From the NCBI GenBank assembly GCA_018334595.1, contig JAGXLQ010000001.1:1-29474 (forward strand): DNA of 29,474 bases, in the 5' to 3' direction. A program made the translations under genes and the position numbers. Source of the DNA: Candidatus Bipolaricaulota bacterium (GTDB lineage Bacteria > Bipolaricaulota > Bipolaricaulia > M55B111). This document shows positions 2,456-19,486 of this stretch, piece by piece (the stretch's first letter is position 1; every line of letters starts with the position of its first letter). Below the pieces are notes generated by a model. The model was not told the DNA's origin. It was given only the letters and a program-made list of their open reading frames with translations, and did no database searches.

Positions 2456-3328
2456 TTACGCTTTCTTTCTTTTCCTTTTTGGGTTGAGCAAGTCACTAAC
2501 ACCTTCCCCGACTAGACCGAAGCCAAGTGAGAGAATAATGATCATGATGCCTGGGAACGTAACCAACCACCAATAACCACTTTGGAGGAATTTTTGTCCG
2601 TTTTGAATGTCGAACCCCCAGTCCGGCGTCGGGGGCGGCAGGCCGTATCCCAGATAGGAAAGGGACGCCTCCGTTAGTATGGCGTCCGCGATGTTAAATG
2701 AGGAGATGGCCATAATTGCGTTGACGACGTTTGGCGCGATATGTTTGAACAATATTCTAAACCCACTCGCACCCATTGCGTTGACTGCCTCGACGAAGGT
2801 CTCTTCCCGAATTGTCAATACCTCGCTCCGTGTAACGCGGAAGTAGGTTGGGATGTAAACTATAGATATGGCAAATATCATCGTGTCCACTCCGGGCTCA
2901 AGAACGGCAACCAGCACTATAGCGAGGATGATGGAAGGAAATGAGTAAAGGGCGTCCATAGTTACCGATAGCACCCGGTCGACGAAGGAACCGATGTATC
3001 CCGAGATCAACCCCAGGATAGTTCCCACGCTCATGGAGAGGGCAATTGAGGCAAAGGCAACTATCAACGGTGCCCGGGCTCCGTTTAATACTCTTGAGAG
3101 TACGTCTCTTTGAAGCTGATCAGTTCCCATTGGGTGAGCTACCGATGGAGGGCTCAGCCTGGGTGCGCTTCTGTACGTGATCGGGTCGTATGGGGCAATG
3201 TAGGGGGCAAAAATTGAGACTATGATAAAGATCAATACCACAACCAGTCCGACAGCGAGTAACTTTTCCCGTTTTAGGATGGGAGACAGTTTTGTCAGGC
3301 CATCGAGTATCTTTTTGGTAAAAAGCAT
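2456..3328 (-). CDS. ABC peptide transporter permease, DppC/OppC type
   Basis: HPMGTDQLQRDVLSRVLNGAR, EAA loop (EETFVEAVNAMGASGFRILFKHIAPN), multiple hydrophobic helices. Confidence 0.93.
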   Translation of the reverse strand: MLFTKKILDGLTKLSPILKREKLLAVGLVVVLIFIIVSIFAPYIAPYDPITYRSAPRLSPPSVAHPMGTDQLQRDVLSRVLNGARAPLIVAFASIALSMSVGTILGLISGYIGSFVDRVLSVTMDALYSFPSIILAIVLVAVLEPGVDTMIFAISIVYIPTYFRVTRSEVLTIREETFVEAVNAMGASGFRILFKHIAPNVVNAIMAISSFNIADAILTEASLSYLGYGLPPPTPDWGFDIQNGQKFLQSGYWWLVTFPGIMIIILSLGFGLVGEGVSDLLNPKRKRKKA

Positions 3329-3335
3329 CTAGTAG

Positions 3336-4355
3336 TTAATACCTCACTCTTGGGTCAAGCTGTGCGTAAAGAACGTCAACGATCAAGTTTATGACCGAAA
3401 TGAAGATGGCGATAAATATGATCGACCCCTGAATCGCCGGGTAGTCACGGGCATCGACGCTCCTGATCAGGAACCTTGCGACTCCTGGCCATGAATAGAC
3501 GGTCTCGGTAAGGACGGCTCCGCCCATAAGGATGGCGAACTGTAGGCCAAGTACCGTTATGATTGGGATCATGGCGTTCCTTAAGGCGTGTTTGAACACA
3601 ACTATCCTTTCGGCCAAACCTTTCGCCCGGGCCGTCTTCACGTAGTCGAGGTCGATGATTTCCAGCATGTTCGCCCTGCTCATCCTCCCCAGCAACCCTG
3701 CTTGGATAATTCCCAGGGTGAGCGCTGGAAGCAGCAGGTGCCTTAGAGTTTCGATCAGTAGGTCGAATCGCCCCTTGATGATGGTATCGATCACGTATAG
3801 TTTGGTGATTGGAGTAAACATCGCCATCGATAGTGCCCCCAGCCTGTTACCTACCGGCAACCAACCCAGGTAGACGGCGAATACGATCTGAAACATCAAC
3901 CCCATCCAGAAGATCGGCACCGCGAAGGCGCCGATGTGAAAGATCCTTAGGCCGTGGTCAATAAGCGTGTCGCTCTTTACCGCCGCCCATACTCCCGTCC
4001 CTACACCCAAAAGGAGGGCGATAAACATCCCCCAAAAAGCAAGCTCCAGAGTAGCGGGAAACCGAGAGAATATTTCCTGGAGCACGGGTTTATCAGTCCG
4101 TAAGGAGTTCCCAAAATCCCCCTTGAATATGCCCGCCAGGTACTCGACGTACTGCTCATGAATGGGCTTGTCAAAGCCCAACTCCGCCCTTTTTCTTTCT
4201 ATGAGTTCCTTGCTGACGTTACGGCCACCAAGCATTGCCTGGACAGGATCTCCAGGGATAACTCGAAGTAGGATGAAGACCACCGTGATGAGGACGAATA
4301 ACATGGGGATTGTTGTTGCCAGTCTCTTGACAATATAGGCACCGAGATTATTCAT
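3336..4355 (-). CDS. ABC peptide transporter permease, DppB/OppB type
   Basis: IVKRLATTIPML, PGDPV, GDFGNSL, EAA loop (DYVKTARAKGLAERIVVFKHALRNA), DPRVRY terminus. Confidence 0.94.
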   Translation of the reverse strand: MNNLGAYIVKRLATTIPMLFVLITVVFILLRVIPGDPVQAMLGGRNVSKELIERKRAELGFDKPIHEQYVEYLAGIFKGDFGNSLRTDKPVLQEIFSRFPATLELAFWGMFIALLLGVGTGVWAAVKSDTLIDHGLRIFHIGAFAVPIFWMGLMFQIVFAVYLGWLPVGNRLGALSMAMFTPITKLYVIDTIIKGRFDLLIETLRHLLLPALTLGIIQAGLLGRMSRANMLEIIDLDYVKTARAKGLAERIVVFKHALRNAMIPIITVLGLQFAILMGGAVLTETVYSWPGVARFLIRSVDARDYPAIQGSIIFIAIFISVINLIVDVLYAQLDPRVRY

Positions 4356-4431
4356 CTCTCACTCCTCTAGGATATCATTTAACGAAACAGCCTTACACTT
4401 TGTCTCAATAGATTCTATATCGATATTATGA

Positions 4432-4460
4432 ATTATAGTTTGATCAGTAAATTATTTCAA
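4432..4460 (-). promoter_or_regulatory. Sigma70-type promoter for dppB-dppC(-dppA)
   Basis: Minus strand TTGAAA (4460-4455), 17 nt, TATAAT (4437-4432), about 75 nt upstream of the dppB ATG. Confidence 0.7.
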
Positions 4461-4471
4461 AATGAAAGGTC

Positions 4472-5707
4472 TTATGTTTCACGATGTAAACCATTTCTAA
4501 CAAGGTTTATCAATATCTTTTTAATAGATGCGAAGGGACTTCTTTCGTCTTTTTCATCGGGGGAGCCCTTCGCCGTAAACATATCAAAACATTTTAATAA
4601 GAGGCCAACCGCGTTTGCATATATGGGGTCTTGTATTATGTCCTGAAGTCCGAGTACCTTTGGAGAGGTCAGGCCCACTCGGAAGGTAAACGCGTATCTA
4701 TCCTCAAGAAAATCAACCAGACCGGGCATATTGGCGGTGCCTCCGACCAACCTGATTCCTACCTCGGTAAACTCCATGTATTCCGTACCCTCGATCTCCT
4801 CAAGCGCCATGTCAAAGGTTTCCTCGACCCTGGACGAGATAACTTTCTGCACCTCGGCCCGCTCTGCCTGTTTGCTTTCACCGGAGAAGTCCTCGTACTC
4901 GAAGTTTGTCTCCGCTGCCCTTTCTTCGACGAGTCCGACCGAACGTTTGATCTTCTCCGCGTCTTCAGTTTCCACGTTGAACCTAACCCTTAAGTCTCCG
5001 GTAATTTGAGTTCCCCCTACGGGTAGAGAACCCCAGTGGACCAGGTTTTCTCCTCGATAAACCGAGGTCTCGGTCGAATTGTATCCCAGGTCGATCACGA
5101 TCCTTCCCTCGTGAGGGCCGGAGGCCTGGCTAAAAAAACTGCCACGGGCCCATGTAATTGGGATTATCCCCCGGACGGTCAGGCCAGCTTTACTCGCCGA
5201 TGCTTTGACGTTCTCGACGATCCTTGAGGTGGCCGTGAACAACTCCACGGTAACGTCTAACCTGTTGCCGTACATCCCTACAGGATTGTTGACGCCATCC
5301 TGTCCGTCCAATGAGAAAACTCTTGGTCTTGCCGATATGATACGTTCCCCGTAGTTGGAATTTGCCCTGGCCAGATCGAGGGCACGGCTCACGTCCTTTT
5401 CGCTGATTGGACTTTCTGAATCTGGAATGGAGACAGTGGCATCACGGAGCTCAAGGTGAATGGACTCCCCACCGATCCCGAAGTAAAGAGAGGACAGAGA
5501 AGTTCCCGCCATTTCGTTGGCCCTCTCTACAGCGTCGCGTAACGCCCCGGAGGCCTCTTCAGGACTATCGGTGACGTTAGAGCTGGCACAATTGAGGGTC
5601 TTCTTGCCTACTCCGATTACCTTAATCGTCCCCGAGCCTTCACCTTCCCCGATAAGTACCTTAACCGAACTGGTTCCAAGATCGACTACTCCAACCCTTC
5701 GGGACAT
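4472..5707 (-). CDS. ftsA: Cell division protein FtsA (actin-like ATPase)
   Basis: VVDLGTSSVKVLIGE (phosphate 1), FSLDGQDGVNNPVGMYGNRL (1C domain), DLGYNST, VGGTQITGDL, EDAEKIK, GGTANMPG, and a C-terminal amphipathic helix FASIKKILINLV. Start moved to ATG 5707, which follows AAGGAG. Confidence 0.85.
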   Translation of the reverse strand: MSRRVGVVDLGTSSVKVLIGEGEGSGTIKVIGVGKKTLNCASSNVTDSPEEASGALRDAVERANEMAGTSLSSLYFGIGGESIHLELRDATVSIPDSESPISEKDVSRALDLARANSNYGERIISARPRVFSLDGQDGVNNPVGMYGNRLDVTVELFTATSRIVENVKASASKAGLTVRGIIPITWARGSFFSQASGPHEGRIVIDLGYNSTETSVYRGENLVHWGSLPVGGTQITGDLRVRFNVETEDAEKIKRSVGLVEERAAETNFEYEDFSGESKQAERAEVQKVISSRVEETFDMALEEIEGTEYMEFTEVGIRLVGGTANMPGLVDFLEDRYAFTFRVGLTSPKVLGLQDIIQDPIYANAVGLLLKCFDMFTAKGSPDEKDERSPFASIKKILINLVRNGLHRET

Positions 5708-12294: not shown

Positions 12295-12350
12295 AGATAT
12301 CGGTTCGAGTGTTTGAACAGCCCCATAATTGATAGAAGGTGAGGTATTTA

Positions 12351-14183
12351 ATGAATGATTCCCGGGAAAAGTATATCCCCGATCTGAGCGTGATAGTAGA
12401 CGGAGGCATCACTGAGCTAGTCTCAACGAGGCAGTTGCAAGGGGTAGAGGTTGTCGTACCCGAGGTCGTAGTCCTTGAACTGGAAGCCGAAGCGACGAAC
12501 GGTCAGGAAACTGGATACAAGGGTTTGAACGAGTTAAAGAAGCTGAGGGAATTCTGCGAGGAGGGTCTAATTGACCTGAAGTTCGAGGGCGCGGAGGACC
12601 TGAGTCCTGCCCCACCAGGCCCGAAGGGGTTGGATCCGGTAATCAGAGGCCTAGCTCAGCGACTTCACGGTACGCTGATTACGAACAACAAAATTCAAGC
12701 CTCAATTGCTCGCAGCAAGGGGTTGTCCGTGCAACTGCACCGGCCGCGAGGGAAGGATACGGAAAAGAGTTTAGAGGGGTTGGAACTGCTGGATTACTTC
12801 GATGAGACGACTATGTCCGTTCACCTTCGCGCGGATACGGTACCACGCGCCAAGATGGGTACACCGGATTCGGTCCAACTCGAGTCGATAAGCGAAAAGA
12901 AGCTCAGTTCTGAGCGACTGGAACAGCTGACTGAAGAAATAGTTGAGGTTGCTGATGTCCACCCTGCCGGCTTTATCGAGATGGATTCGGGTGGCGCGTC
13001 GGTAGTTCAGCTGGGCAATATTCGTATAGCGATAGCCAAGCCGCCTTTTTCCGATGCGATAGAGATTACGGCTACCCGTCCGGTCAAGAAGACGACGATT
13101 GCCGACTACTCCTATTCCGAGCTCATAGAGAGCAGGTTACAGCAATCACACCGTGGCGTGCTGGTTGCCGGCGCTCCGGGGATGGGAAAATCAACTCTGG
13201 TGCAGGCTCTGTCGGAGTTCCTTCGGGATTCCGGTTGGATCGTCAAGACCATGGAAAAGCCTCGTGACCTGGACGTTTCTCCGGAGATAAGTCAGTACCG
13301 TGATTTGAACGGGGAGATGGCGGATACGGCGGAAATACTCCTGTTGACCCGGCCTGACTACACGATTTTTGATGAGATGAGGCAGACCTCCGACTTCGAG
13401 GTCTTTGCCGACCTCCGCATGTCGGGCGTTGGCCTGGTTGGGGTAGTTCACGCGACCAAGGCCATTGATTCGTTACAGCGCCTTGTGGGCAGGGTAGAAC
13501 TCGGAATGATCCCTCAAATCGTGGATACCGTTTTGCACGTGGATGGGGGAGATATCAAGAAGGTGTTCGACGTTGAGATGACTGTAAAGACACCATCAGG
13601 TATGGAGCAGGGTGACCTATCCAGGCCGGTCATCGAGGTCCGGGATTTCGAAACCGGAAGTCTGAGCTACGAGATCTATACGTTCGGAGAACAGGTAGTA
13701 GTCATTCCCCTGGAAGGCCAGGAGCAGAACAGAATCTGGGACTTTGCGACGTCGGGACTGGAGGATCAGCTGGCCCAGGAGTTGCCATTTGACTTCGACC
13801 TGGAAATAAGATCCAACAACCGTATAGCGATTTACGTGGCCGATCACCACGTACCCGCGGTCCTCGGTCATGGAGGGAAGAGGGTAGATGCCCTTGAAAA
13901 AAAGGTGGGACTTCACATTGACGTGAGGACCTTCGCCGAGAGAGAGAGTTCTTCGCCTACTTCACCTGACTTCCGGGTCAAAAATTCTGACGAGTACCTG
14001 CTGCTGAATTTTGACCCTTCCTTCAGCAACGAGGAGATAGAGATATCGATTAACGGGGAACGCGTCTTCTCCGGAGCGGTATCCAAGAAAGGACGGATTA
14101 AGCTGACCAAGGATACTCACCAGGCAAGACGGATAAAGAAGGCGCAACGTGAAGGGGATAAGATTACAGTCAACAAGCTCTAG
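12351..14183 (+). CDS. PIN domain - ATPase - KH domain protein (archaeal PINA / COG1855-like)
   Basis: PIN-like N-terminus (IPDLSVIVDG, VPEVVVLELE), Walker A GAPGMGKST, KTMEKPRDL, Walker B YTIFDEMR, GVGLVGVVHA, RVELGMIPQIVDT, KH GxxG (VLGHGGKRVDALEKKVGLHIDV). ATG 12351 follows GAGGT. Confidence 0.85.
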   Translation: MNDSREKYIPDLSVIVDGGITELVSTRQLQGVEVVVPEVVVLELEAEATNGQETGYKGLNELKKLREFCEEGLIDLKFEGAEDLSPAPPGPKGLDPVIRGLAQRLHGTLITNNKIQASIARSKGLSVQLHRPRGKDTEKSLEGLELLDYFDETTMSVHLRADTVPRAKMGTPDSVQLESISEKKLSSERLEQLTEEIVEVADVHPAGFIEMDSGGASVVQLGNIRIAIAKPPFSDAIEITATRPVKKTTIADYSYSELIESRLQQSHRGVLVAGAPGMGKSTLVQALSEFLRDSGWIVKTMEKPRDLDVSPEISQYRDLNGEMADTAEILLLTRPDYTIFDEMRQTSDFEVFADLRMSGVGLVGVVHATKAIDSLQRLVGRVELGMIPQIVDTVLHVDGGDIKKVFDVEMTVKTPSGMEQGDLSRPVIEVRDFETGSLSYEIYTFGEQVVVIPLEGQEQNRIWDFATSGLEDQLAQELPFDFDLEIRSNNRIAIYVADHHVPAVLGHGGKRVDALEKKVGLHIDVRTFAERESSSPTSPDFRVKNSDEYLLLNFDPSFSNEEIEISINGERVFSGAVSKKGRIKLTKDTHQARRIKKAQREGDKITVNKL

Positions 14184-14188
14184 GGCGG

Positions 14189-15658
14189 TTACCCCTTAAC
14201 GACTATTATCGGTTTGAGCTTGGCCACTTTTGGTGTCAGTCCATTGGTGTCGACAGAATCAACCACCCTGTCCACGTCCTTGTAAGCACCGGGAGCCTCC
14301 TCTGCCAGTCCGGGGTAGGAGTGCGATTTTACTACTATTCCCCTCGACCTGAGAGACGTCTCCACGTCCTCACCCCAGAATTTCGACTTGGCCTTCTTGC
14401 GAGACATCGCCCTCCCTGCACCGTGAATCCCGCTGCCGAACGTCATTTTCATTGCCGTCTCCGTTCCCCGTAGGACGTAGGAGGATGACCCCATCGTCCC
14501 CCCGACGAGTACCGGCCCGCCGACTCCTCTGTAGGCCTTGGGTAACTCTTTGCGCCCCGGCCCGAACGCCCGCGTGGCCCCCTTTCTGTGGACCAGTAAT
14601 CGTTGTTGGACTCCGTTCACGGTGTGGTCTTCGACCTTGGCGGTGTTGTGGCCCACTTCGTAGACGGTCCTTATCTCCTGTGGTGGGATGTCGACGACCC
14701 GTGAGAACCCCCGGCGTGCCAGTCCGGCCAGGACCTGGCGGTTGGCAAAGGCGCAGTTCATTCCACATCTCATGGCGCTCAGGTATTCTCTCCCCTCGGG
14801 GCTGTCTATCGGTGCGGATACCAACTCCCGTTCCTCGATCGGGAGGTCGTATTTTTTGCTGGCGTCCTTCAGTTTGGAGAGGTAGTCCTGCCCTATTTGA
14901 TGACCGAGGGCCCGGGAGCCCGTATGTATTGATATGACTATTTGACCCTCGTGTAAGCCGTAAGTGTCCCCGGCCTCCCGGTCGTAAATTTCCTTTACCT
15001 CCTGTACTTCCAGGTAGTGATTGCCTGAACCGAGGGTCCCCACCTGTTTAAATTGACGCTGTTTGGCGCGCCGGCTGACGTTTTTCGGGTCCGCTCCGTC
15101 GATCCGCCCGTTTTCCTCTACATATTCAAGGTCGTCTTCGATCCCGTAACCGATTTCCAACCCGAACCTAGCTCCCTGGACGAGCGCCTTATCTATCTCC
15201 TCGATCGAAAGGTTGATTTCGCCTTCGGACCCAAGTCCTGCGGGGACCGTCCTGTAAAGGGTGTCTGCCAGTTTGTCCTTGACCTTGGTTACGTCACGGA
15301 CTTCTAGAGGGGTCCTCAGTAAACGGACGCCGCAGTTGATGTCAAACCCCACGCCACCGGCAACGACTACTCCGTCCTCCACGTCGAATGCCCCTACGCC
15401 GCCAATCGGGAATCCATAACCGGGGTGGATGTCTGCCAGGCCGATGGACGCGGAGACGATACCCGGAAGGGAAGCCACGTTTATCAGTTGCTCCAGCGAA
15501 CTCCATTGGTCCTCTTGTCGATACTCAGCGAGGAGTCCTTTAGCGGAATCCCGGTCGACAAACAACCTGCCGGGAACGTTCATCTTCCCGAACTCCTCGA
15601 TTTCCCAGGTGTTCTTGTCCAGCTCCTTCAGACTAATCTCTTGTCCGTTCAACGTCAT
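14189..15658 (-). CDS. rtcB: RNA 2',3'-cyclic/3'-phosphate ligase RtcB, long archaeal/eukaryal-type form
   Basis: DIHPGYGFPIGG, GFDINCGVR, GTLGSGNHYLE, IHTGSR, HNTAK, HRKGATRA, HGAGR (nucleophile His), EEAPGAYKD, VVKG terminus. The true start may be TTG 15652, which has better spacing to GGAGG. Confidence 0.96.
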   Translation of the reverse strand: MTLNGQEISLKELDKNTWEIEEFGKMNVPGRLFVDRDSAKGLLAEYRQEDQWSSLEQLINVASLPGIVSASIGLADIHPGYGFPIGGVGAFDVEDGVVVAGGVGFDINCGVRLLRTPLEVRDVTKVKDKLADTLYRTVPAGLGSEGEINLSIEEIDKALVQGARFGLEIGYGIEDDLEYVEENGRIDGADPKNVSRRAKQRQFKQVGTLGSGNHYLEVQEVKEIYDREAGDTYGLHEGQIVISIHTGSRALGHQIGQDYLSKLKDASKKYDLPIEERELVSAPIDSPEGREYLSAMRCGMNCAFANRQVLAGLARRGFSRVVDIPPQEIRTVYEVGHNTAKVEDHTVNGVQQRLLVHRKGATRAFGPGRKELPKAYRGVGGPVLVGGTMGSSSYVLRGTETAMKMTFGSGIHGAGRAMSRKKAKSKFWGEDVETSLRSRGIVVKSHSYPGLAEEAPGAYKDVDRVVDSVDTNGLTPKVAKLKPIIVVKG

Positions 15659-15672
15659 ACCTCCCGATTTAT

Positions 15673-16098
15673 CTACACGTCAACCACGAATACGCACGAC
15701 CACTCGTCGGGGTCCGGACTCGTTACTTCCAGACCCTGGTAGGTAATTCCTTTTACCTCAGTACCGAGGGAATGCCTTGACGGATCGATCTCCTCCCCCC
15801 TCAGGCGCCCGTGCAGCGTCAATCTGTCTGCGGTTTTCTCTACCTCAAGGTCGAACTCGGAGTAAACCGTCATTTGCAGTTGGCTTAGGGAGAGCAACTC
15901 CCCTAACCACTCGTAAAGCAGATCCTCCTCGTCTTCGCCCTCTACTGTCAGTCGTTCTTCTGTTGACTTCCTTACTCCTTCCAGGTCGGCCATGAGGCTA
16001 AACAAGGCCCTTGCCGCGCTGGCAAGAAGGCCTGTAAAGGTTTGCGCCCGTGCCCGGACCCCGACGTCGGCGCCGTGATCCAGGTACTCGTAATTCAC
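15673..16098 (-). CDS. Archease (RtcB activator, SHS2 family)
   Basis: YEYLDHGADVG, EDLLYEWLGELL, EVKGITY, C-terminal VVDV. It lies 14 nt upstream of rtcB; its GTG start overlaps the thpR stop (GTGA). Confidence 0.92.
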   Translation of the reverse strand: MNYEYLDHGADVGVRARAQTFTGLLASAARALFSLMADLEGVRKSTEERLTVEGEDEEDLLYEWLGELLSLSQLQMTVYSEFDLEVEKTADRLTLHGRLRGEEIDPSRHSLGTEVKGITYQGLEVTSPDPDEWSCVFVVDV

Positions 16099-16667
16099 CT
16101 GTCCTCTCCTTGCAGGGGGAGTTTAAACAAGGGTGTGTAAACTGGTCCATCCCTTCTTAGTTCGCTTTCCATAAGCGTCAACTCGTCTATTTCCACCTCC
16201 CAGTTCTCTCCCACGGAAAAAGATTCGAGTTCTCGTCCCATTTCCTTGATCCTGCCATTATTTTTCTCCTTGGTCCTTCCCAGCGTGATATGAGGTATGT
16301 AGTCCCTCTCCTCCGGGTCGAAGCCCAGACCGGCCATCTCTTCCTCCAGGTCCGCGTATAGGGAGTGTATTTCCGCTGGCTCCGAACTGCTCCCAAGCCA
16401 GATGACTTTCGGGTAGCTTACTTTGGGAAAAGACCCAAGTTTGTCGATCTCCATGGTGAAGGCGGGGTTGTGGTCCGCGGGGGCCTTTGCCGCCTCCTCA
16501 ATTTCGTCTACGCGGGAGGGCTCCACCTCTCCGAGGAACTTGAGCGTTACATGAAGGTTGGCGGGGTCGACCCACTTTACGTATGCCGGTTGGTAGATAT
16601 CTTCGGATAGCTTTGCCATCCGTTTTCTTGTCTCTTCCGGGATTTCCAGACAAAAGAAGGTTCGCAT
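16095..16667 (-). CDS. thpR: RNA 2',3'-cyclic phosphodiesterase (2H phosphoesterase, ThpR/LigT family)
   Basis: MRTFFCL start, two HxT motifs (LHVTLKFLG, PHITLGR), GSFP, MESEL...GPVY. ATG 16667 is preceded by AGGTG. Confidence 0.92.
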   Translation of the reverse strand: MRTFFCLEIPEETRKRMAKLSEDIYQPAYVKWVDPANLHVTLKFLGEVEPSRVDEIEEAAKAPADHNPAFTMEIDKLGSFPKVSYPKVIWLGSSSEPAEIHSLYADLEEEMAGLGFDPEERDYIPHITLGRTKEKNNGRIKEMGRELESFSVGENWEVEIDELTLMESELRRDGPVYTPLFKLPLQGEDR

Positions 16668-16775
16668 TATTACCACCTGTTATTGATCAGAAACTATCAT
16701 CACTGGTAGTTACGGTATTGAATATGGTCGTAGGTTTCAACGTATTAACGGTTGGTGGATCAACTTTTGTGAGAT

Positions 16776-17040
16776 ACCATGCAACCCGCCTCGAAATTGC
16801 TTGCCTGGCGTTACCTGGGCAGTTAGCTCTGATCAAGCTACCTCCTGACACCCACAGAGGTCTATTTACCGCTGCTCCCTTCCAGGCCTGACGGGATTTG
16901 TAGACTTGTGCCGCAGAAGACTCGACCGTCAACACCACTTTTCCAGGTCCAGTCCCAAACAACCAACTCCTCAGCAGGCATATCGGCTCCCCTATAGCGG
17001 ATTGAGGAAACGGGGACCGCTAGCCCCCACCTAGCATGGC
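16776..17040 (-). ncRNA. ffs: Signal recognition particle RNA, large bacterial (Alu-domain-containing) type
   Basis: SRP54-binding helix CCCGUCAGGCCU-GGAA-GGGAGCAGCGGUA (16895-16867). The Alu domain has complementary loops AGCGG/CCGCU. Blocks AAGUGGUGUUGACG and GAGCUAACUGC...GUAACGC resemble Bacillus scRNA as I recall it. The terminal helix pairs 5' GCCAUGC with 3' GCAUGGU; about 265 nt. Confidence 0.93.
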
Positions 17041-17128
17041 TGGCGGAGGGGGTGGGATTTGAACCCACGGAACCTCTCGGTTCACCGGTACTCCAAACCG
17101 GCGGTTTTGGCCGCTCGCCCACCCCTCC
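17041..17128 (-). tRNA. tRNA-Ser (anticodon GGA), CCA encoded
   Basis: Acceptor GGAGGGG/CCCCTCC, discriminator G, CCA; anticodon stem CCGGT/ACCGG with loop TTGGAGT; long variable arm GAACC-GAGA-GGTTC; T arm GTGGG-TTCAAAT-CCCAC. Confidence 0.93.
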
Positions 17129-17152
17129 TTATTGTCTAATTTCTGCCGATAA

Positions 17153-17181
17153 AGGTTAAGCTAGAAAAGCCTCCCGTGCAA
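17153..17181 (-). promoter_or_regulatory. Promoter for tRNA-Ser/SRP RNA (and possibly thpR-archease-rtcB)
   Basis: TTGCAC (17181-17176), 17 nt, TAACCT (17158-17153), giving a leader of about 18 nt before the tRNA. Confidence 0.65.
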
Positions 17182-17221: not shown

Positions 17222-19486
17222 TTACTTCTTTTCCACGTGGTTGCAGCCCTTATTACTGCAGACCAGCTTGTCGTCGTCGTCCACGAGGACACCCCTTCCA
17301 CAGCTCGGACAACGTTTTACCGGCCTGCGGCTAGTCGTAAACTTGCAATCGGGGTAGTTGCTGCAGCCGTAGAAGACCTGCTTCTTTCTGCGGGAGTAGC
17401 GTTCGAGCAGTTCTCCTTCTTCACATTTCGGGCACTCTACTCCGGTTGAAATGGAGGCGGTCTCCTTACAGTCGGGGTTGGTGCAGGCGTAGAACCTCCC
17501 GTACCTCCCGTGCTTTATTTCCATCTTTGATCCACACTCGGGGCAGGTCTTCTCGCCCAGGCTTTTGTCCTCTTCCCGCCGTCTTTCCAGTTCGTCCGCC
17601 AGTATTACCTTACCCCCCCTGTACTTGAACGATATATTCGTTGGCAGGCTCATCTTTTCCTCGCATTGGGGATAGGAAGAGCAGGATAGGTACGGTGAAC
17701 CCTTCCAGTAGCGGATGTTCATATGGCCGTCGCACTCGGGGCAGTCTACGTCGGTGGGAATTTCGAACCCGTTATCCTGGGTTTCCAGAATCTCTTCTAC
17801 TTTGTTCAATTCCTCCTTCAGTGGACCGTAAAATTTATTGAGGGTCTTCTCCTTTGACGTCTCTCCGTCCTTGATTCTGTCCAGTGCGTCCTCCATCGTT
17901 GCCGTCAGGTCCGGCTCCACTATTTCGGGGAAGAATTCGTCAAGGAACTCGACCACGATAAACCCGAGGAGGGTCGGAACGAACGAGCCGTTCTGTTTAA
18001 CGATGTAATCACGGTGTTGTATGGTCGAGATGATGCTGGCGTAGGTGCTCGGACGGCCGATGCCCTGTTTTTCCAGTTTTTTGATTAACCCTGCTTCTGT
18101 GTACCTATTAGGGGGTTTGGTAAAATGCTGGCTGAGGTCGATGTCCTTCAGGCTGAGTTCGTCCCCCTTGGAGATGTTGCTGGGAAGGTTCACGTCCTGG
18201 TCGCTAAGAGGTCTTAATTGCAGCACCTTTAAGAAACCTTCGAAGAGCAATTCGCTGCCGGAGGTCTTAAACAGGTAACCGTCACCATTTACCGCAATTT
18301 TTTTCCTCTTGTACCTGGCGTTACTCATCTGAGTTGCGACGAACCTTTCCCAGATAAACCTGTACAGGCGGTACTGATCCCGTGACAAGTAGCTCTTTAT
18401 CTTGTCGGGTTCTCTCTGGACTCCGGTCGGGCGGATCGCCTCGTGAGCGTCCTGGGCTCCGCTATTCTTTCTGAAGTAGCGGGTCTTCTCGGCAAGGTAA
18501 CTATCCCCGTACTTCCCCGTAATAAACTTCCGCAGGCCCTGGTTAGCCTCCTTTGCCACCCTGGTCGAATCCGTTCTCATGTACGTGATCAGGCCTTCGA
18601 CTCCGCTCTCGAGCTCCACACCCTCGTAAAGGGACTGGGCAACTCTCATAGTCTTGCTCGGAGTAAAGCTTAGGATGGACGAGGCCGTCCTCTGGAGCGT
18701 GGAAGTAATAAACGGGGGGAGTGGTGACCTCGTCTTGGTCTTCTCCGTTAAGTCGCTGACGACGAATTCAGCTTCGTTTAAGTCCCGTTCGACCTGGTCC
18801 GCCTGGTCTTCACTACTTATGTCGGGTGTTTCACCCTCGATCTTTTTCAGGTCAAGTGGGAAACTATCCGAAGTCTTCTCCTTGTACAGGTCTATTACTA
18901 CTTCCCAGTATTCCTTGGGTTCAAATCTTTCCCTCTCCTCCTCCCGATCGACGATGTACTTCAACCCCACGGACTGTACCCGACCGGCGCTCAGCCCCTC
19001 GAATCGACTTCCCGATATGGACTTGGACAGGAGAGGACTAATGAGGTAGCCAACCAGCCGGTCGAGAATTCGACGGGCCCGCTGGGCTTCAACCTTCTCG
19101 AGGTCTATCGTGGTGGGTTCCTTGATGGCCTGGTTGATGCTGTCCTTCGTTATCTGGTTAAAGATGATCCGTTTGAACTTCCCGTTGCTCCCGTTATCCT
19201 TTAATAGTTCGTAAAGGTCAAACGCGATCGCTTCACCCTCCCTGTCGTTATCCGTTGCCAGGTATACCGTCGTATCCCCTTTGGCGGCCTGTTTCAACTT
19301 GCCGACCAATTTCTTTTGGTTAACGACGAGGGTAGGCTTAAAACCATCCTCTATCTCGACGCCGAGCTCCTTTTTCGGCAGGTCACGAACGTGACCCTTC
19401 GACGAGAGTACCTTGTACCGTGAACCTAGGTACCTGTTTATCGTATTTGCTTTTGTCGGTGACTCTACAATAACTAAATCGTCCAT
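17222..19486 (-). CDS. topA: DNA topoisomerase I (type IA) with C-terminal zinc ribbons
   Basis: IVESPTKA, GHVRDLP, ATDNDREGE, SAGRVQS, LYE...ITYMRTDS (catalytic Tyr), DAHEAIRPT, GIGRPSTY, four CxxC...C...C zinc-ribbon repeats. Confidence 0.97.
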   Translation of the reverse strand: MDDLVIVESPTKANTINRYLGSRYKVLSSKGHVRDLPKKELGVEIEDGFKPTLVVNQKKLVGKLKQAAKGDTTVYLATDNDREGEAIAFDLYELLKDNGSNGKFKRIIFNQITKDSINQAIKEPTTIDLEKVEAQRARRILDRLVGYLISPLLSKSISGSRFEGLSAGRVQSVGLKYIVDREEERERFEPKEYWEVVIDLYKEKTSDSFPLDLKKIEGETPDISSEDQADQVERDLNEAEFVVSDLTEKTKTRSPLPPFITSTLQRTASSILSFTPSKTMRVAQSLYEGVELESGVEGLITYMRTDSTRVAKEANQGLRKFITGKYGDSYLAEKTRYFRKNSGAQDAHEAIRPTGVQREPDKIKSYLSRDQYRLYRFIWERFVATQMSNARYKRKKIAVNGDGYLFKTSGSELLFEGFLKVLQLRPLSDQDVNLPSNISKGDELSLKDIDLSQHFTKPPNRYTEAGLIKKLEKQGIGRPSTYASIISTIQHRDYIVKQNGSFVPTLLGFIVVEFLDEFFPEIVEPDLTATMEDALDRIKDGETSKEKTLNKFYGPLKEELNKVEEILETQDNGFEIPTDVDCPECDGHMNIRYWKGSPYLSCSSYPQCEEKMSLPTNISFKYRGGKVILADELERRREEDKSLGEKTCPECGSKMEIKHGRYGRFYACTNPDCKETASISTGVECPKCEEGELLERYSRRKKQVFYGCSNYPDCKFTTSRRPVKRCPSCGRGVLVDDDDKLVCSNKGCNHVEKK

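Follow-up and report, generated by a model that had tools for sequence, protein, structure and literature searches.

Why should genes for the processing and ligation of RNA ends follow directly upon those of two housekeeping RNAs? The question is posed by a 29,474-nucleotide (nt) stretch of DNA from a Candidatus Bipolaricaulota bacterium (GenBank assembly GCA_018334595.1, contig JAGXLQ010000001.1, positions 1 to 29,474), hereafter called the window, which is one contig of a 1.5-Mb metagenome-assembled genome (MAG) of hypersaline origin, with 236 contigs and a completeness of ~75%. Its minus strand carries a serine tRNA gene (tRNA-Ser), the signal recognition particle (SRP) RNA gene ffs, and the protein genes thpR, archease and rtcB, in that order. 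A sequence-only reading of this DNA had proposed that the repair proteins are co-expressed with the SRP RNA or tRNA and may act on them. We lean, if only slightly, toward another answer, in which descent has kept two neighboring units side by side, the repair operon stands on its own and no substrate link joins it to the RNAs. The first unit would be a dicistron of tRNA-Ser(GGA) and SRP RNA under a strong sigma70-type promoter that is itself conserved. The second would be the operon thpR-archease-rtcB, whose genes are translationally coupled and serve RNA end processing and ligation; it forms a conserved block across most of the phylum and presumably had, ancestrally, a promoter of its own just ahead of thpR. 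The adjacency of the two would then be inherited local synteny (dnaE-yvcK, rtcB-archease-thpR and ffs-tRNA-Ser in both f1, the window's own family, and f4, its sister family in the phylum Bipolaricaulota) rather than a substrate relationship. In the window itself thpR-rtcB is probably transcribed from TTGAAA-N17-TACCGT in the ffs-thpR spacer, to which read-through from the tRNA-Ser promoter may add. The account starts from what the sequences show, namely the identities of the genes, their intact motifs, the pattern of synteny and -10 boxes conserved in other families.

The identities and order of all five genes were confirmed by ARAGORN, Rfam and Pfam. The tRNA-Ser gene (17041..17128, minus strand, as are all features of the two units) has the anticodon GGA and an encoded CCA end (Rfam RF00005, 47.3 bits). 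The bacterial large SRP RNA gene (16777..17039; Rfam RF01854, 165.6 bits, threshold 60) spans positions 1-256 of the 256-position model, Alu domain and helix 8 included, and hence is full length, not permuted and without insertion; it is the one ffs copy found in the MAG. A spacer of 109 nt (16668..16776; 108 nt in the sequence-only reading) leads to thpR (16095..16667), which encodes a 190-residue 2H-family RNA 2',3'-cyclic phosphodiesterase (LigT/ThpR; Pfam LigT_PEase, 6.3e-35). We place the thpR start at the ATG at 16667, which is common to all homologues (the longest open reading frame begins with a GTG at 16676), behind the ribosome-binding site AGGTGG at 16679-16674. ThpR has two LigT_PEase (PF02834) stretches with both HxT motifs kept, and it aligned with PH0099 (PDB 1vdx; 3e-23) through HVTLKFLG and HITLGR. 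The archease gene (15673..16098; 141 residues) has a GTG start that overlaps the thpR stop codon by 4 nt (GTGA), and rtcB (14189..15658), the last gene of the unit, starts 14 nt after archease; the tight coupling proposed for the three genes thus stood. Archease matched positions 1-136 of the 136-position Pfam model (PF01951; 2.9e-40, 138.2 bits) and aligned with Pyrococcus horikoshii archease (4n2p; 1.3e-19), its acidic N-terminal motif HGADVGVRA lying opposite HTADIGIRG. The 489-residue rtcB product is an archaeal-type 3'-phosphate/5'-OH RNA ligase that covers all 426 positions of PF01139 (model 1-426; 2e-156, 521.9 bits) and aligned end to end with P. horikoshii RtcB (1uc2/4dwq; 4e-152). 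It keeps the metal-binding and guanylylation motifs DINCG, GSGNHYLEV, HTGSRALGHQ, GHNTAK and IHGAGR. In the P. horikoshii enzyme we take the metal-binding Cys/His/Asp set and the guanylylated histidine to be numbered Cys98, His203, His234, His329 and His404. Judged by these alignments, the catalytic motifs of ThpR, archease and RtcB are intact.

Given these genes, the first issue is whether thpR has a promoter of its own. We aligned the regions upstream of thpR on the start codon and then tested the position of a -10 box. In family f6 a perfect TATAAT lay 6-9 nt before the thpR start in 8 of 8 genomes, which implies an own promoter and a leaderless mRNA, and in both f8 genomes (2/2) TATACT or TAAGCT was found in the same place, 7 nt before the start. 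In f4 the box was TAnnnT, mostly as TGnTAnnAT, followed by GGAGG, as expected of an own promoter with a short leader. It stood 15-20 nt before the start in 10 of 16 genomes and 15-22 nt before it in 13 of 16, against about 3% expected on the basis of the remaining upstream sequence, and it occurred alike in genomes with and without ffs linked to the operon. A generic sigma70 position weight matrix (PWM) applied spacer by spacer failed to single out f4; the fixed -10 position did. The sequence-only reading had staked its claim on thpR having no start site of its own. Outside f1 that position is undercut by a predicted -10 at a fixed distance before thpR in f4, f6 and f8. Because the -10 position is fixed across families, the thpR operon is predicted to be ancestrally self-promoted.

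The mode of translation initiation also appears to switch within this one orthologous operon. In f6, thpR lacks a Shine-Dalgarno sequence (L014, L015, L022, L023, L043, L045, L051 and L052) and would be read from a leaderless mRNA, whereas in f4 and f1 it has a leader with GGAGG or GGTGAT.

Several observations weigh against an autonomous operon, above all in the window's own family. The genomes just counted are related and not independent, so that the counts and binomial figures overstate the case. Family f1 has no conserved proximal -10 before thpR: TAnnnT occurred 14-24 nt before the start in 4 of 14 genomes, no excess over the 20% expected (p = 0.31). In 8 of the 14 f1 spacers the generic sigma70 PWM gave no promoter-like site above coding background, and transcription from further upstream may be what the operon relies on in those eight genomes. 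Between ffs and thpR there is no intrinsic terminator, and the linkage is invariant in f1, being found in all 14 genomes where both genes share a contig. Finally, the candidate promoter in the window spacer has a weak -10, TACCGT, and is common to just one congener.

Several of these observations also speak for a rival reading, a five-gene transcription unit in f1. The tRNA-Ser promoter would drive all five genes, SRP RNA 3'-end processing would free the mRNA, and the operon would merely hitch-hike, with the RNAs not being substrates. The genes lie on one strand with spacers of 78-111 nt, and the proximal -10 of f4, f6 and f8 is what f1 fails to conserve. Two f4 spacers are just 20 and 35 nt long, too short to hold a promoter that does not extend into ffs. 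There is precedent for operons that mix tRNA and protein genes: in thrU-tyrU-glyT-thrT-tufB of E. coli, as here, short spacers separate stable RNA genes from the protein genes that follow on the same strand, and a strong stable-RNA promoter could feed the protein genes here too. In Bipolaricaulota, by contrast, relatives carry an own -10 before thpR, and co-transcription with the RNA genes is putative. We regard the five-gene unit as possible but doubtful, given also that many relatives have a working operon with no ffs beside it and that the window and its congener share a spacer promoter candidate.

That candidate, missed by the sequence-only reading, consists of TTGAAA at 16740-16735 and TACCGT at 16717-16712 separated by 17 nt. 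It scored 10.0 bits with the PWM, a value reached by 0.2% of coding windows of the same length, and both boxes are identical in the congener (G001, locus L003) despite divergence of the remaining spacer. The window spacer has a second -10-like site, TGATAGTTT, at 16699-16691. Hand searches of the genus-g2 spacers for a shared promoter gave nothing consistent.

How much the missing terminator says in favor of the five-gene unit depends on how the organism terminates transcription. The sequence-only reading had found no hairpin plus U tract between ffs and thpR, and for the window spacer this was borne out. However, terminator-like matches over the whole 29-kb window were at shuffle expectation (17 versus 13.8 and 20 versus 16.6). 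The organism thus seems to use few canonical terminators, and that the spacer lacks one says little for read-through. The spacer sequence is AT-rich (GC content 0.37 versus 0.53 for the window) with an excess of C over G; the C/G ratio of the first 80 nt, 2.05, ranks at the 96th percentile of the strand. Rho is encoded in the MAG, and an untranslated, unstructured, C-rich spacer tail would be a plausible Rho substrate, which makes Rho-dependent termination ahead of thpR plausible and counts against a common transcript. The possibility that the spacer contains a structured RNA or leader was considered and rejected: it had no Rfam match at E <= 1 and folded no better than its shuffles (z = -0.12).

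The Rho RNA-binding domain gave two separate matches in the MAG (G000:C123:1482-1697 and G000:C164:2471-2686) and one in relatives; the gene may be duplicated, or the bin may mix strains.

Public sequencing runs had little to say on read-through. Near-identical DNA is present in metagenomes of salt lakes and hypersaline mats, and run searches found the locus in such DNA metagenomes only; an exact look-up of the ThpR protein likewise returned DNA contigs only. Three runs labeled metatranscriptomic yielded just short, adapter-flanked SRP RNA and tRNA fragments of relatives, which leave the spacer and thpR uncovered and are uninformative on read-through.

At the upstream end of the locus, the promoter placed ahead of tRNA-Ser by the sequence-only reading held up well. 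It lies at 17153..17181 (-35 TTGCAC at 17181-17176, a 17-nt spacer, and -10 TAACCT at 17158-17153) and ends 24 nt before the 5' end of the tRNA. The same architecture, TTGAAA or TTGCAC-N17-TAACCT or TACCCT, precedes tRNA-Ser in 10 of the 12 f1 members displayed, and a related form, TTGAAA-N17-TAGAAT, in 6 of the 7 ffs-linked f4 loci displayed. The call is supported because this architecture is conserved in f1 and f4, and the tRNA-Ser promoter is thus predicted to be strong, conserved and of sigma70 type. The order of tRNA-Ser before ffs is itself kept in f1, f4, f5 and f6.

A 242-nt contig from a run labeled metatranscriptomic bridges the tRNA-Ser/SRP RNA junction of a close relative (window positions 16985-17128), with 2 extra nt at the junction relative to the window. 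The contig may derive from a dicistronic tRNA-Ser/SRP precursor, which it fits, but it proves nothing, as DNA carry-over is possible.

To follow the linkage through the phylum we located RtcB and the SRP RNA in 61 and then 151 Bipolaricaulota genomes. RtcB was found in 143 of the 151. In f1, wherever one contig carries both genes (14 of 14 genomes), they share a strand, with ffs 1.25-1.56 kb upstream of rtcB; in the remaining f1 genomes where both were found they are on different contigs. In f4 the two are linked in 17 genomes of the genera g6, g9, g17, g27, g38, g40, g43, g46 and g47, and lie on different contigs in g10, g13, g22, g25, g36, g37 and g41. In three f6 genera (g18, g21 and g24) 3.6-5.2 kb separate ffs from rtcB, in the two complete genomes of f6 genus g8 the distance is 300-400 kb, and in families f2, f3, f5, f7 and f8 the genes are unlinked. 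The expectation that relatives keep the linkage therefore stood for every testable f1 genome and for the 17 f4 genomes, about half of that family, and failed for at least seven f4 genera, for f3 and f8, and for the three f6 genera with an interrupted arrangement. In unlinked genomes ffs is followed by genes for an Rrf2 regulator, an aminotransferase or an amidohydrolase, or by an opposite-strand radical SAM gene.

The nature of the f6 interruption was read in one locus, L014 (genus g21), where an opposite-strand gene for a Cdc48-type AAA ATPase (2756-5044, plus strand) lies between ffs and thpR. A common ffs-thpR transcript is therefore ruled out there. That the 2.5-4 kb f6 insert might be dnaX-ybaB-recR, a common ffs neighbor, proved to be wrong for this locus. 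The L014 ATPase has a double AAA module and a CDC48 N-domain and is an archaeal/eukaryote-type protein inside a bacterium. L022 carries a comparable long opposite-strand open reading frame, the identity having been read in L014 only.

The RtcB tree follows taxonomy. The linkage is seen throughout f1 and in the basal genera of f4. It is missing from g25 and from a well-supported group of six f4 genera, and the basal genera of f6 show the interrupted arrangement. Most simply, an ancestral neighborhood was broken several times but the triad thpR-archease-rtcB never was. The three genes stayed together in each of the five families examined that have this RtcB lineage (f1, f3, f4, f6 and f8), with archease lost in one genome (L011). 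In f3 pyrB-pyrI precede thpR, and elsewhere without ffs it is preceded by other genes. The conserved region extends beyond the repair genes. In eight linked f4 genomes, as in the window, rtcB also converges on yvcK (CofD family) and dnaE. A linked block that holds functionally unrelated convergent genes points to plain inherited synteny.

Two spacers stand apart in length. In genus g3 of f1 (L016:808-1181) the ffs-thpR spacer is 366 nt and holds a small open reading frame for a hydrophobic peptide behind a TGCTAAAAT extended -10. In one f4 genome (L037:1968-2290) it is 323 nt and packed with several GC-rich hairpins, maybe repeat elements.

Could the adjacency nevertheless reflect function, with RtcB, archease and ThpR healing and resealing breaks in SRP RNA or tRNA-Ser, or maturing the zero-spacer precursor of the two? 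The adjacency has survived deep divergence (ThpR identity between f1 and linked f4 genomes is only 33-38%), and rtcB neighbors RNA genes elsewhere: in the Salmonella rsr-yrlBA-rtcBA locus non-coding RNA genes, the Y RNAs, lie beside it. The ends are wrong, however, since RNase P and 3' trimming generate 5'-phosphate and 3'-OH ends, and RtcB is not known to join ends of this type. The triad is moreover unchanged where ffs lies elsewhere, and the conserved block includes unrelated genes. One precedent connects SRP RNA with RtcB-type ligation: the permuted SRP RNA of Thermoproteus is cut at a bulge-helix-bulge motif by the tRNA-splicing endonuclease and circularized, and its authors propose RtcB as the ligase (PMC4731332). 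Unlike that case, the window is from a bacterium, its SRP RNA is colinear and complete without permutation or intron, and no tRNA-splicing endonuclease was found in five Bipolaricaulota genomes. A further objection comes from the known chemistry of ThpR. The E. coli enzyme converts 2',3'-cyclic phosphate ends to 2'-phosphates, which RtcB cannot join (PMC4201822), and by analogy the same conversion is predicted for the protein encoded here. We therefore see nothing that points to either SRP RNA or tRNA as the substrate that the sequence-only reading had suggested, and consider this the least probable of the readings weighed here.

A version confined to f1 would combine expression and function: the proximal thpR promoter decayed, the operon became a 3' extension of the tRNA-Ser/SRP transcript, and ligation came to be made in step with stable-RNA synthesis so as to service precursor or mature SRP RNA or tRNA. 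This seems to us highly unlikely. Were the operon in truth both expressed from the SRP RNA/tRNA transcript and directed at it, bacterial RtcB would gain the housekeeping substrate that has long been lacking, an outcome that the comparative evidence makes unlikely.

It is a biochemical puzzle that an rtcB operon should start with thpR, since the known product of this phosphodiesterase is an end that the ligase of the same triad cannot join. Throughout the phylum, the triad may have a chemistry of its own: aberrant 2',5' linkages might be opened, or cyclic ends marked, by ThpR and then resealed as 3',5' linkages by RtcB with archease. In the window's genus, 3 of 3 genomes encode a Tpt1/KptA RNA 2'-phosphotransferase, on another contig (G000:C59:2509-2994), and it could remove 2'-phosphates made by ThpR; Tpt1/KptA was not found in two complete f6 genomes.

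The control of the operon also differs from that of familiar systems. RtcA (PF01137), RtcR (PF06956) and the sigma54 DNA-binding domain (PF04552) were not found in five Bipolaricaulota genomes (two complete), and sigma54-like sites (resembling TGGCAC-N5-TTGC) were at chance level, with none in the locus. The absence of rtcR/sigma54 control noted in the sequence-only reading was thus upheld. It is a property of the genomes searched, not of the locus, and with no RtcR or sigma54 in them the operon must use sigma70-type expression. The E. coli rtcBA operon (RtcR/sigma54) and the Salmonella rsr locus resemble the present one in having an RtcB ligase in an RNA-repair context, but here rtcA, rtcR and sigma54 were not found, RtcB is archease-dependent in type, and the neighboring RNAs are a housekeeping tRNA and SRP RNA rather than Y RNAs. 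A closer likeness is the archease-rtcB 'tRNA splicing operon' of diverse bacteria and archaea (Desai et al. 2014, PMC3973293), in which, as here, archease lies directly upstream of an archaeal-type RtcB with tight coupling and catalytic residues kept. The difference is the ThpR/LigT gene, which here comes first, overlaps archease by 4 nt and is conserved with the pair in the five families examined that have this RtcB lineage. Outside the phylum (Pirellulales, Ignavibacteriota, archaea and others), thpR lay beside archease-rtcB in 0 of 13 loci with upstream sequence, and in the ten of these scanned with Rfam no SRP RNA was found within about 6 kb. A literature search found no paper describing the thpR-archease-rtcB triad.

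A phylum of small genomes thus keeps ThpR, archease and RtcB almost universally, and does so, in the genomes searched, with no splicing endonuclease, RtcA, RtcR or sigma54 found. The promoter architecture of the operon varies by family, from leaderless through a short leader to no conserved box. Bipolaricaulota would be a reasonable place to ask what a constitutive bacterial RtcB is for.

The genes flanking the two units show their own lineage-specific changes. Upstream on the same strand is topA (17222..19486, minus strand; DNA topoisomerase I, Pfam Topoisom_bac 4e-123), for which a promoter scan gave a promoter of its own, TTGATA-17-TATAAT at 19537-19509. topA lies upstream of tRNA-Ser in f1 only. 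On the other side an ATPase gene (12339-14183, plus strand; T2SSE/AAA matches) is convergent with rtcB. It too is seen in f1 only, and in eight f4 genomes rtcB abuts yvcK directly; the ATPase gene, missing from that position there, is therefore a lineage-specific insertion.

RtcB itself has an unusual form in several genomes of families f2, f5 and f7. There it is encoded by one open frame of ~990-1040 residues in which ~500 residues split the Pfam match after about model position 50 (G019:C18:15507-18293, G025:C47:4716-7550 and G028:C7:737-3577; similar in G114, G118, G123, G148 and G152). The extra stretch looks like an intein inserted in rtcB.

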